64,000 nt of DNA from Thermodesulfobacteriota bacterium (lineage in GTDB: Bacteria; Desulfobacterota; Binatia; Bin18). A model generated the notes under the pieces. The model saw only the letters and a program-made list of their open reading frames with translations. It did no database searches and had not been told where the DNA came from. The DNA is taken from assembly GCA_964291405.2 (NCBI GenBank), contig OZ219926.1:2496001-2560000 (forward strand), in the 5' to 3' direction. A program made the position numbers and the translations under genes. This document shows, in pieces, positions 1-1,373 of this stretch (positions are counted from its first letter, which is position 1; every line of letters starts with the position of its first letter).

Positions 1-288
1 AATAACAATAAAATTGCGACTATACCGGCGTTCTCCTCGTCTTTGGAGGGCGAGAAATTCTCGGCGAACACGCAGACGTGCTGCTTTGGGAAATGTGTAT
101 CGGACCGTGCGAGTAGCTAGCGGCGCGCCGGCTTGAGCGGTGTCCGTACACTGAGGAGTTTGCGCCCTTTCGTGCGCCGCCTCTTGATAACCGCACGACC
201 CCCAGCTGTCCTCATCCGAACGAGAAACCCGTGCGTACGCTTTCGACTGGTATTGCTTGGTTGATAGGTCCTTTTCATCGATATTCAT
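1..288 (-). CDS. rnpA: Ribonuclease P protein component (5' part; runs off the window), apparently N-terminally extended over rpmH
   Basis: Manual translation ...[33 protein letters not shown] is a typical RnpA N-terminus, directly downstream of rpmH. The only ATG/GTG/TTG in this frame before the domain is ATG at 288. Confidence 0.85.
117..278 (-). CDS. rpmH: 50S ribosomal protein L34
   Basis: Manual translation [53 protein letters not shown] (53 aa, below the ORF-track cutoff). Confidence 0.97.
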
Positions 289-347
289 CCGTTCCTAGTG
301 TGCTGTGCTCAGTTAGCCATCCATATCACCATACCGCTCCCAAGATG

Positions 348-1373
348 TCAATTTTCTCCTGGTGGAAACTCGGCTTTGATCTGACGTGCCAACAGGTCTG
401 TGACCACCTGCATCGGCGGTTTACCAGAATAGACAAGCTCATACATCTGCTCCACAATAGGCATATCAACTCCCAGACGCTGGGCTAAATCCAGAATCGA
501 GCGGCAGTTCCGGATGCCCTCGGCAATCGTTGTCATGGTCCGCTGAATGGCCTCCAAGGACTCTCCTCTTCCGAGCCGAATACCGACAGTGCGGTTGCGG
601 CTGAGGTCACTCGTGCATGTAAGAATAAGGTCACCCATGCCAGAGAGGCCTGATAACGTTTGGGGATTTGCTCCCATCCGGGTTGCCAAACGGACAACTT
701 CAGCCATGCCACGCGTGATTAAGGCCGCCCGCGCGTTATAGCCATAGCCTAAGCCGTCACTCACTCCGACGGCCAAGGCAATCACATTCTTGACTGCACC
801 GCCAATCTCGGCCCCAATCATGTCCGTCGTTGTGTAGACGCGAAATGTCGGAGCCGCAAACAGTGTCTGGACTCTCTGGGCGATGGCGTGATCTTTCGCT
901 GCGACCGTTACTGCGGTTGGGAGTCCGCGTACGACTTCCGCGGCAAAGCTGGGACCTGAGAGCACGGCGATCTCGTGGGCGAACCGTGGGGGGAGGGCCT
1001 CGGTGAGCACCCCACTCATCGTTTGGAGAGAATCCTGCTCAATACCTTTACTTGTGCTCACTAGCAGCGGTGTTGTCGTCAACAAAGATCCTAGCGTTGA
1101 GGCAATGGAGCGGACGGCATGGGATGGAACGGCGATAACAAGGACCTCAGCGCCGATGACTGCTGCAGACAGCTCTGGGGTAAAGCAGAGCGTCTCCGGA
1201 AGCCGCACCCCAGGCAAATAGTCCGCATTCTCTCGTGTTCTTTCAATTTTTTGGGCTAAGACCTCACGCCTGACCCACACCTGAGCCTCATGTCCGACCG
1301 AGTCTAAGAGACACGCCAGGGCGGTTCCCCACCCGCCTCCGCCAATAACAGCAACACGCATATTACTAATCAC
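348..1373 (-). CDS. gpsA: NAD(P)H-dependent glycerol-3-phosphate dehydrogenase
   Basis: GGGGWGTALA Rossmann motif, LSGPSFAAEV, GGAVKNVIA, GDLILTCTSDLSRNR. Confidence 0.96.
   Translation of the reverse strand: MISNMRVAVIGGGGWGTALACLLDSVGHEAQVWVRREVLAQKIERTRENADYLPGVRLPETLCFTPELSAAVIGAEVLVIAVPSHAVRSIASTLGSLLTTTPLLVSTSKGIEQDSLQTMSGVLTEALPPRFAHEIAVLSGPSFAAEVVRGLPTAVTVAAKDHAIAQRVQTLFAAPTFRVYTTTDMIGAEIGGAVKNVIALAVGVSDGLGYGYNARAALITRGMAEVVRLATRMGANPQTLSGLSGMGDLILTCTSDLSRNRTVGIRLGRGESLEAIQRTMTTIAEGIRNCRSILDLAQRLGVDMPIVEQMYELVYSGKPPMQVVTDLLARQIKAEFPPGEN

Follow-up and report, generated by a model that had tools for sequence, protein, structure and literature searches.

The closest described arrangement to the one reported here is that of rnpA and rpmH in Thermus thermophilus (Feltens et al. 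2003, PNAS, as represented in PMC9841429, bioRxiv 10.1101/520783 and PMC9945441). According to these accounts, rnpA encloses the whole of rpmH, which is encoded on the same strand and in another frame, and the RNase P protein (RnpA) is extended at its N-terminus. The two start codons are 4 nt apart, with that of rnpA upstream (AUGGAUG), a single GGAGG Shine-Dalgarno (SD) sequence serves both starts, and translation was demonstrated experimentally. The Thermus pair is called the sole described bacterial case in the text of PMC9841429 (2022) and of bioRxiv 10.1101/520783 (2019), and full-text literature searches gave no further report of a nested rpmH/rnpA pair. Two starts sharing one ribosome binding site and competing in two frames are also known from Escherichia coli, where PMC9841429 describes ambiguous start sites of the AUGUG and GUGUG type for pqiA, tamA and narQ; these starts overlap directly and the alternative products are short. 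For the same bacterium, proteomics cited in PMC9945441 gives about 130 L34 molecules per RnpA. The ordinary rpmH-rnpA operon joins the two genes by an NTGA overlap or a short spacer, with translational coupling.

The locus studied here was found at the left edge of the window, the whole stretch of 64,000 nucleotides that was analysed (G000:C3:2496001-2560000), in the genome of a Candidatus Binatia bacterium that is 97.5% complete. Both genes are present in one copy in this genome; gpsA precedes them and yidD and yidC follow, giving an operon rpmH-rnpA-yidD-yidC. The following features were located, in window coordinates:

1-288, minus strand: 5' part of the rnpA open reading frame, which runs past the left window edge to G000:C3:2495761
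1-93, minus strand: start of the Ribonuclease_P domain, with TTT CCC AAA at 93-85 as the FPK motif
94-116, minus strand: linker from rpmH to the RnpA domain, its codons belonging to the rnpA frame only
117-278, minus strand: rpmH (ribosomal protein L34), 53 codons and the stop TAG at 119-117, inside the rnpA reading frame but in another frame
285-290, minus strand: GGATGA, core of a family-wide ACGGATGR, containing the rnpA ATG, 6 nt before the rpmH ATG
286-288, minus strand: proposed rnpA start codon ATG, 10 nt 5' of the rpmH ATG; with respect to rpmH it is in the -1 frame
293-296, minus strand: AGGA motif, present in the window and not conserved
295-297, minus strand: TAG in the rnpA frame just 5' of ATG 288, at which the frame is closed (counted from the rpmH ATG, it is open from -16)

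An initial annotation of the window had described an RnpA frame open from ATG 288 through the whole of rpmH (278-117), and this frame indeed continues into a true RNase P protein domain. It spans 176 codons in the whole genome and matches the Pfam family Ribonuclease_P (PF00825) over profile positions 1-105 of 109 (E-value 7e-26, 92.4 bits, cut-off 22.3), the match in the genome search beginning at the TTT codon 93-91. The 96-amino-acid RnpA fragment contained in the window gave no Pfam match, because the window edge cuts the domain. rpmH thus lies wholly within a stop-free rnpA frame that starts upstream of it on the same strand, at an offset of 10 nt. Its product matches Ribosomal_L34 (PF00468) over all 44 positions of the model, 1-44 (E-value 6.8e-23, 80.8 bits, cut-off 25). 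At 53 amino acids this L34 is longer than the model; the C-terminal tail (window 117-146) is found throughout the class and is of one type in most Binatia. A frame check confirmed that the rnpA frame holds no further ATG, GTG or TTG between ATG 288 and the RnpA domain, as had been noted before, and the linker 94-116 likewise contains neither a canonical nor a conserved near-cognate start.

At a probability of about 0.78, we infer that rnpA of this bacterium starts at ATG 288 and is read through rpmH. The initial annotation had proposed such a dual-coding solution, with a 10-nt offset and in a lineage unrelated to Thermus, and the proposal gains support from conservation across the family, with translation from ATG 288 as its inferred part. 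As in Thermus, rpmH would be fully nested in rnpA on the same strand and in another frame, the rnpA start would lie just upstream of that of rpmH, and the RnpA would be N-terminally extended. The offset is 10 nt instead of the 4 nt given for Thermus, and since both are 1 modulo 3 the relative frame is the same. Whereas the Thermus starts are described as sharing one GGAGG, the window's family has no conserved SD sequence for both (an SD core is present in 13 of 46 genomes); the Binatia also belong to an unrelated phylum, and the rnpA ATG lies inside a possible SD-like element of rpmH. Translation has been shown experimentally in Thermus and is predicted from sequence here. Compared with the ordinary operon, the gene order and the -1 frame are the same, but the codon at the junction is CTA in the window and there is no start near it. 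The second product of the Binatia pair would be an essential protein, unlike the short alternative products described for pqiA, tamA and narQ. As far as we could find, the Binatia constitute a new, independent member of the Thermus-type arrangement, and their layout is apparently undescribed. An independent second lineage comprising dozens of genomes would make this layout a repeatable outcome of the NTGA-coupled operon in GC-rich genomes.

The significance of the open frame was assessed in the class Binatia, for which 159 genomes could be classified, i.e. 130 of 161 drawn genomes plus a further genome set (left out were G009, in which a contig end cuts rpmH, and G105, G124, G125 and G126). 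A canonical rnpA start at or just after the rpmH stop is the majority layout, present in 104 of the 159, and the NTGA overlap is its commonest form (ATG in 17, GTG in 12 and TTG in 8 of the 104 junction starts). Among the junction-start genomes outside the window's genus, 55 of 102 have the same frame free of stops inside rpmH, and so do 33 of the 63 controls in which rnpA is already in that frame. The probability of a stop-free rpmH frame in one genome is 0.17 from genome-wide codon use (a product of the codon-use figures made by hand) and 0.48 from the control frequencies. An open frame in a single genome is at chance level and therefore not evidence, and its significance on that basis was rejected. 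The signal above chance comes only from the comparison of related sequences.

Fifty-five genomes of the window's family were searched, all metagenome-assembled and uncultured, and 51 of them could be classified. The nested layout, with an upstream ATG, no junction start and an open frame, was found in 46 of the 51, distributed over eight genera. Alignment of the relatives, proposed earlier as a check, therefore showed the frame stop-free and the upstream ATG kept in each of these 46; stops in close relatives had been named as speaking against the dual-coding solution, and the nested-type genomes contain 0 stops in the frame. The ATG is at -10 in 45 genomes and at -13 in one, where a 3-nt insertion preserves the frame; in the first family set it was present in 27 of 27 distinct sequences. 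The same 27 sequences showed no conserved CTG or ATH codon (CTG, ATT, ATC, ATA) from +2 to +200, and the first conserved CTG lies within the domain, past the conserved FPK motif. A non-canonical start near the rpmH stop had also been listed as contrary evidence. At the rpmH stop, the rnpA frame reads CTA in 29 of the 46 genomes, including the window, TTA in 8, CTG in 7 and ATA in 2, a variation that does not fit a conserved non-canonical start. The stop-to-domain distance was 29 nt in 38 genomes, 23 nt in seven and 35 nt in one, in steps of 6 nt; linker length among the nested genomes thus varies only by multiples of 3. Identity between genera was 71% for rpmH DNA, 76% for the L34 frame and 58% for the RnpA domain, with 40% for the rnpA frame overlapping rpmH. 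The sequence of the extension therefore drifts, and quickly, with only its openness retained.

Over the sequences compared, family-wide selection can be shown to keep the rnpA frame free of stops. A stop in this frame requires a T at the third position of an rpmH codon, followed by AA, AG or GA. In the 43 distinct rpmH sequences of the family, T was found at 0 of 375 such risky codons and at 347 of the 1340 other codons that permit it. The junction-start controls have T at 65 of 809 risky codons and at 631 of 3205 other T-permitting codons, and the genome-wide effect of context on T is small (0.22 versus 0.25). The stop-free requirement extends to rpmH codon 7-8. In a tree test, each risky site was treated as a two-state process on the tree, with T frequencies taken from the controls. 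For the window's genus only (25 leaves), the probability that all leaves would be stop-free without constraint was 0.004 to 0.08 at control frequencies. For the family (46 leaves), scaling the branches to fourfold sites gave 4.6e-8, half that rate gave 1.5e-5, and unscaled branches gave about 1e-3; all these values are rough and model-based, the trees being built from 98 fourfold sites and about 500 nt, and the risky sites being those listed for the genus. In the third frame of rpmH, stops occur in 46 of 46 nested genomes.

Natural controls also come from within the family: one genus starts rnpA at the junction, and an insertion elsewhere carries a start with it. The only exceptions to the intact long frame among the 51 classified genomes are three genomes of genus g20 and two with the insertion, and all five carry a canonical start of their own adjoining the domain. 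In g20 this is a GTGA junction start. The rnpA frame has stops in 3 of 3 g20 genomes, where T occupies 7 of 25 risky codons and is no rarer there than at safe codons (24 of 100). The genus falls inside the family in a gene tree of about 500 nt, which would make its junction start a reversion, although we draw no order of events from so weak a tree. The second exception concerns two genomes of the window's own genus (G018 and G119), which share a palindromic insertion:

L022, about 1670-1730 (G018), and L045/L055 (G119): 53-nt insertion, located after the rpmH stop and before the RnpA domain

This insertion disrupts the long frame and supplies its own SD sequence, AAGAGGAAGC, followed by a GTG in frame with RnpA. 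It folds into a strong hairpin of 17 bp (-53.2 kcal/mol, z -5.6) in which the start is buried, and unwinding it might require ribosomes that arrive from the former ATG upstream. That the insertion is a multi-copy mobile element was considered and rejected: at up to 3 mismatches it occurs once in G018, once in G119 and nowhere in G000 or G011.

The region of initiation was compared across the same genomes. The initial annotation had placed one AGGA upstream of both starts, 4 nt from the rnpA ATG and 14 nt from that of rpmH; this spacing is correct in the window (296-293), but its role as a ribosome binding site common to both starts did not hold up, for a core AGGA, GGAG or GAGG within 14 nt 5' of the ATG was present in 13 of the 46 nested genomes and absent from 33. 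The ACGGATGR motif, on the other hand, was found upstream of rpmH in all genera of the family, g20 included. As g20 keeps both the motif and the ATG without needing them for rnpA, their conservation may serve rpmH, and GGATGA is a possible weak SD-like element for that gene. The frequent lack of an SD sequence at the ATG and the retention of the motif in g20 both count against a start of rnpA at ATG 288. The genome contains a 12-nt motif with CCTCC and then TTTCT, which we take to be the 3' end of its 16S rRNA. The leader (326-225) was less structured than 200 of 200 shuffled sequences (z +2.46).

Matching contigs covering window positions 78-391 were found in metatranscriptome libraries from sponge and coral (coded runs X1-X4). 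A contig of X2 covers 78-326, and so spans ATG 288, with zero differences over 249 nt; contigs of relatives in X1 and X4 cover 145-366 and 241-391. Such contigs do not fix the 5' end of a transcript, and RNA libraries can hold DNA. A promoter and terminator scan of positions 1-700 made no call on the minus strand. A promoter-like pattern of TTGACA, about 17 nt and a TGATGGATAG-like sequence is conserved upstream of rpmH in several families (L030, L087, L088, L097, L100, L106, L108 and L122). Its counterpart in the window (323-351, minus strand), with TTGACA at 351-346 and then GTGATATGGATGG, lies about 30 nt farther from rpmH and was not called by the consensus scan. In some relatives an A/T-rich hexamer directly 5' of CGGATG (TATAAT in L019) could be a -10 box, in which case the transcript would start at or after the upstream ATG. 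A search of positions 1-600 against Rfam gave only a sub-threshold snoRNA match (22.7 bits against a gathering score of 50), which was taken as chance.

Three other explanations were weighed against a start at ATG 288. RnpA synthesis could begin by termination-reinitiation on a non-canonical codon that coincides with the rpmH stop or is close to it, at the old NTGA site, with the long open frame being irrelevant. This is unlikely, although NTGA overlaps are the commonest junction in the class, the junction codon is CTG in seven and ATA in two of the 46 nested genomes, and four of the 159 class genomes lack any canonical start. The more frequent codons at this site, CTA as in the window and TTA, are each two changes from ATG and are unconserved, and no near-cognate codon is conserved between +2 and +200. 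Such a start would moreover leave unexplained why stop-creating T is absent from all 375 risky codons, why linkers preserve the frame and why stops appear in the genus with a junction GTG. It is still less probable that the open frame and the upstream ATG are coincidental or serve rpmH only, for instance as a short regulatory upstream reading frame or an SD-like element, RnpA being made by an unseen route. About half of the controls are open by chance and the ATG motif is kept in g20 despite a frame that closes early, both as this explanation would have it, but the openness of the frame across the whole family is improbable without constraint (1e-3 to 5e-8). Since there is one copy of RnpA, with an FPK motif that persists through synonymous changes, translation must in any case begin upstream of FPK.

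The third explanation, an early -1 shift by ribosomes from the rpmH ATG that would produce an L34-RnpA fusion, draws on the position of rnpA in the -1 frame with respect to rpmH. As the stop-free requirement reaches codon 7-8, the shift would have to fall within the first few codons (ATG AAA AGG), where visual inspection revealed no X XXY YYZ heptamer. An in-frame, invariant ATG with a stop just upstream of it is the simpler reading, and we regard a shift as very improbable.

If rnpA starts at ATG 288, translation would proceed from there through the 53 codons of rpmH and the 23-nt linker into the RNase P protein domain, and one stretch of mRNA would encode L34 and, in the other frame, a 66-residue extension of RnpA. 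Both start codons would lie inside one ribosome footprint on an apparently unstructured leader, the rnpA ATG being within GGATGA, the sole conserved purine-rich element 5' of the rpmH ATG, and initiation at either start would preclude the other. ATG 288, weak and mostly without an SD sequence, may thus yield little RnpA beside much L34. As to the origin of the arrangement, an ancestral NTGA overlap would already have placed rnpA in the -1 frame, and the junction start was then probably lost, in a lineage whose alternative frame chanced to be open.

Of 128 genomes outside the family, 15 combine an open frame with an upstream start and are without one at the junction. Two families stand out as candidates for further nested families. 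In family f14 (L203-L227), the upstream-only type accounts for 20 of 25 genomes, and its ATG stands, according to genus, at -34, at -37/-40 or at -49 to -64. In family f9 (L229-L258) this type was found in 19 of 28 published genomes, with TTG at -13 in 17 and GTG at -13 in one, and in six of the genomes this is the only start available, because the frame is closed by a stop 3 or 6 nt upstream. Tentatively, and at somewhat less than even odds, nesting may be both recurrent and reversible across the Binatia, having arisen in at least three families with different upstream starts and the same frame, and with reversion to a junction start leading to fast decay of the frame, as in g20. If true, the Binatia would offer a natural series for the birth, upkeep and loss of an essential overlapping gene pair, and a weak start within the ribosome binding site of a strong gene would set a very unequal ratio of two proteins.

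Other layouts were also encountered in the class. Eight genomes outside the family have a start inside rpmH, mostly a TTG at +124 in another frame. This TTG, in the +1 frame, occurs in L071, L136, L146, L152, L074, L135 and L144, from families f5, f13, f16 and f20. It would give an rpmH/rnpA overlap of 35 nt, and several of the rpmH genes concerned begin with GTG. Four of the 159 genomes (L085, L169 and L173 of f5, and L157 of f18) have no ATG, GTG or TTG in the open rnpA frame before the domain, which implies non-canonical initiation of rnpA somewhere in the class, unless these are assembly errors. In f5, a CTG takes the place of the F codon of the FPK motif in 6 of 6 genomes examined and might be a start.

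The predicted 66-residue N-terminal extension of RnpA, encoded across rpmH and the 23-nt linker, was modelled together with the domain using AlphaFold2 on an alignment of 27 sequences. Residues 1-64 had a pLDDT below 50 and no secondary structure, while the domain was modelled with helices and strands at a pLDDT of 70-89. The extension is mildly acidic, with a pI of 5.65 versus 12 for the domain. Because it has no conserved sequence and is predicted to be unstructured, the extension is most likely a tolerated by-product of the position of the start.

Where two genes overlap fully, gene callers are forced to pick between them. The exact L34 of this genome was absent from a collection of 15 billion proteins in which the overlapping 176-aa RnpA was present. 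The suggestion that gene callers always miss a nested L34 did not stand, since exact sequences were found for two of six nested and four of five control L34 proteins, a trend only. The exact RnpA belongs to a 28-member cluster in the public protein collection; the members listed are all 176 amino acids long and one is named ribonuclease P protein component, and the layout is therefore already implicit in existing annotations.
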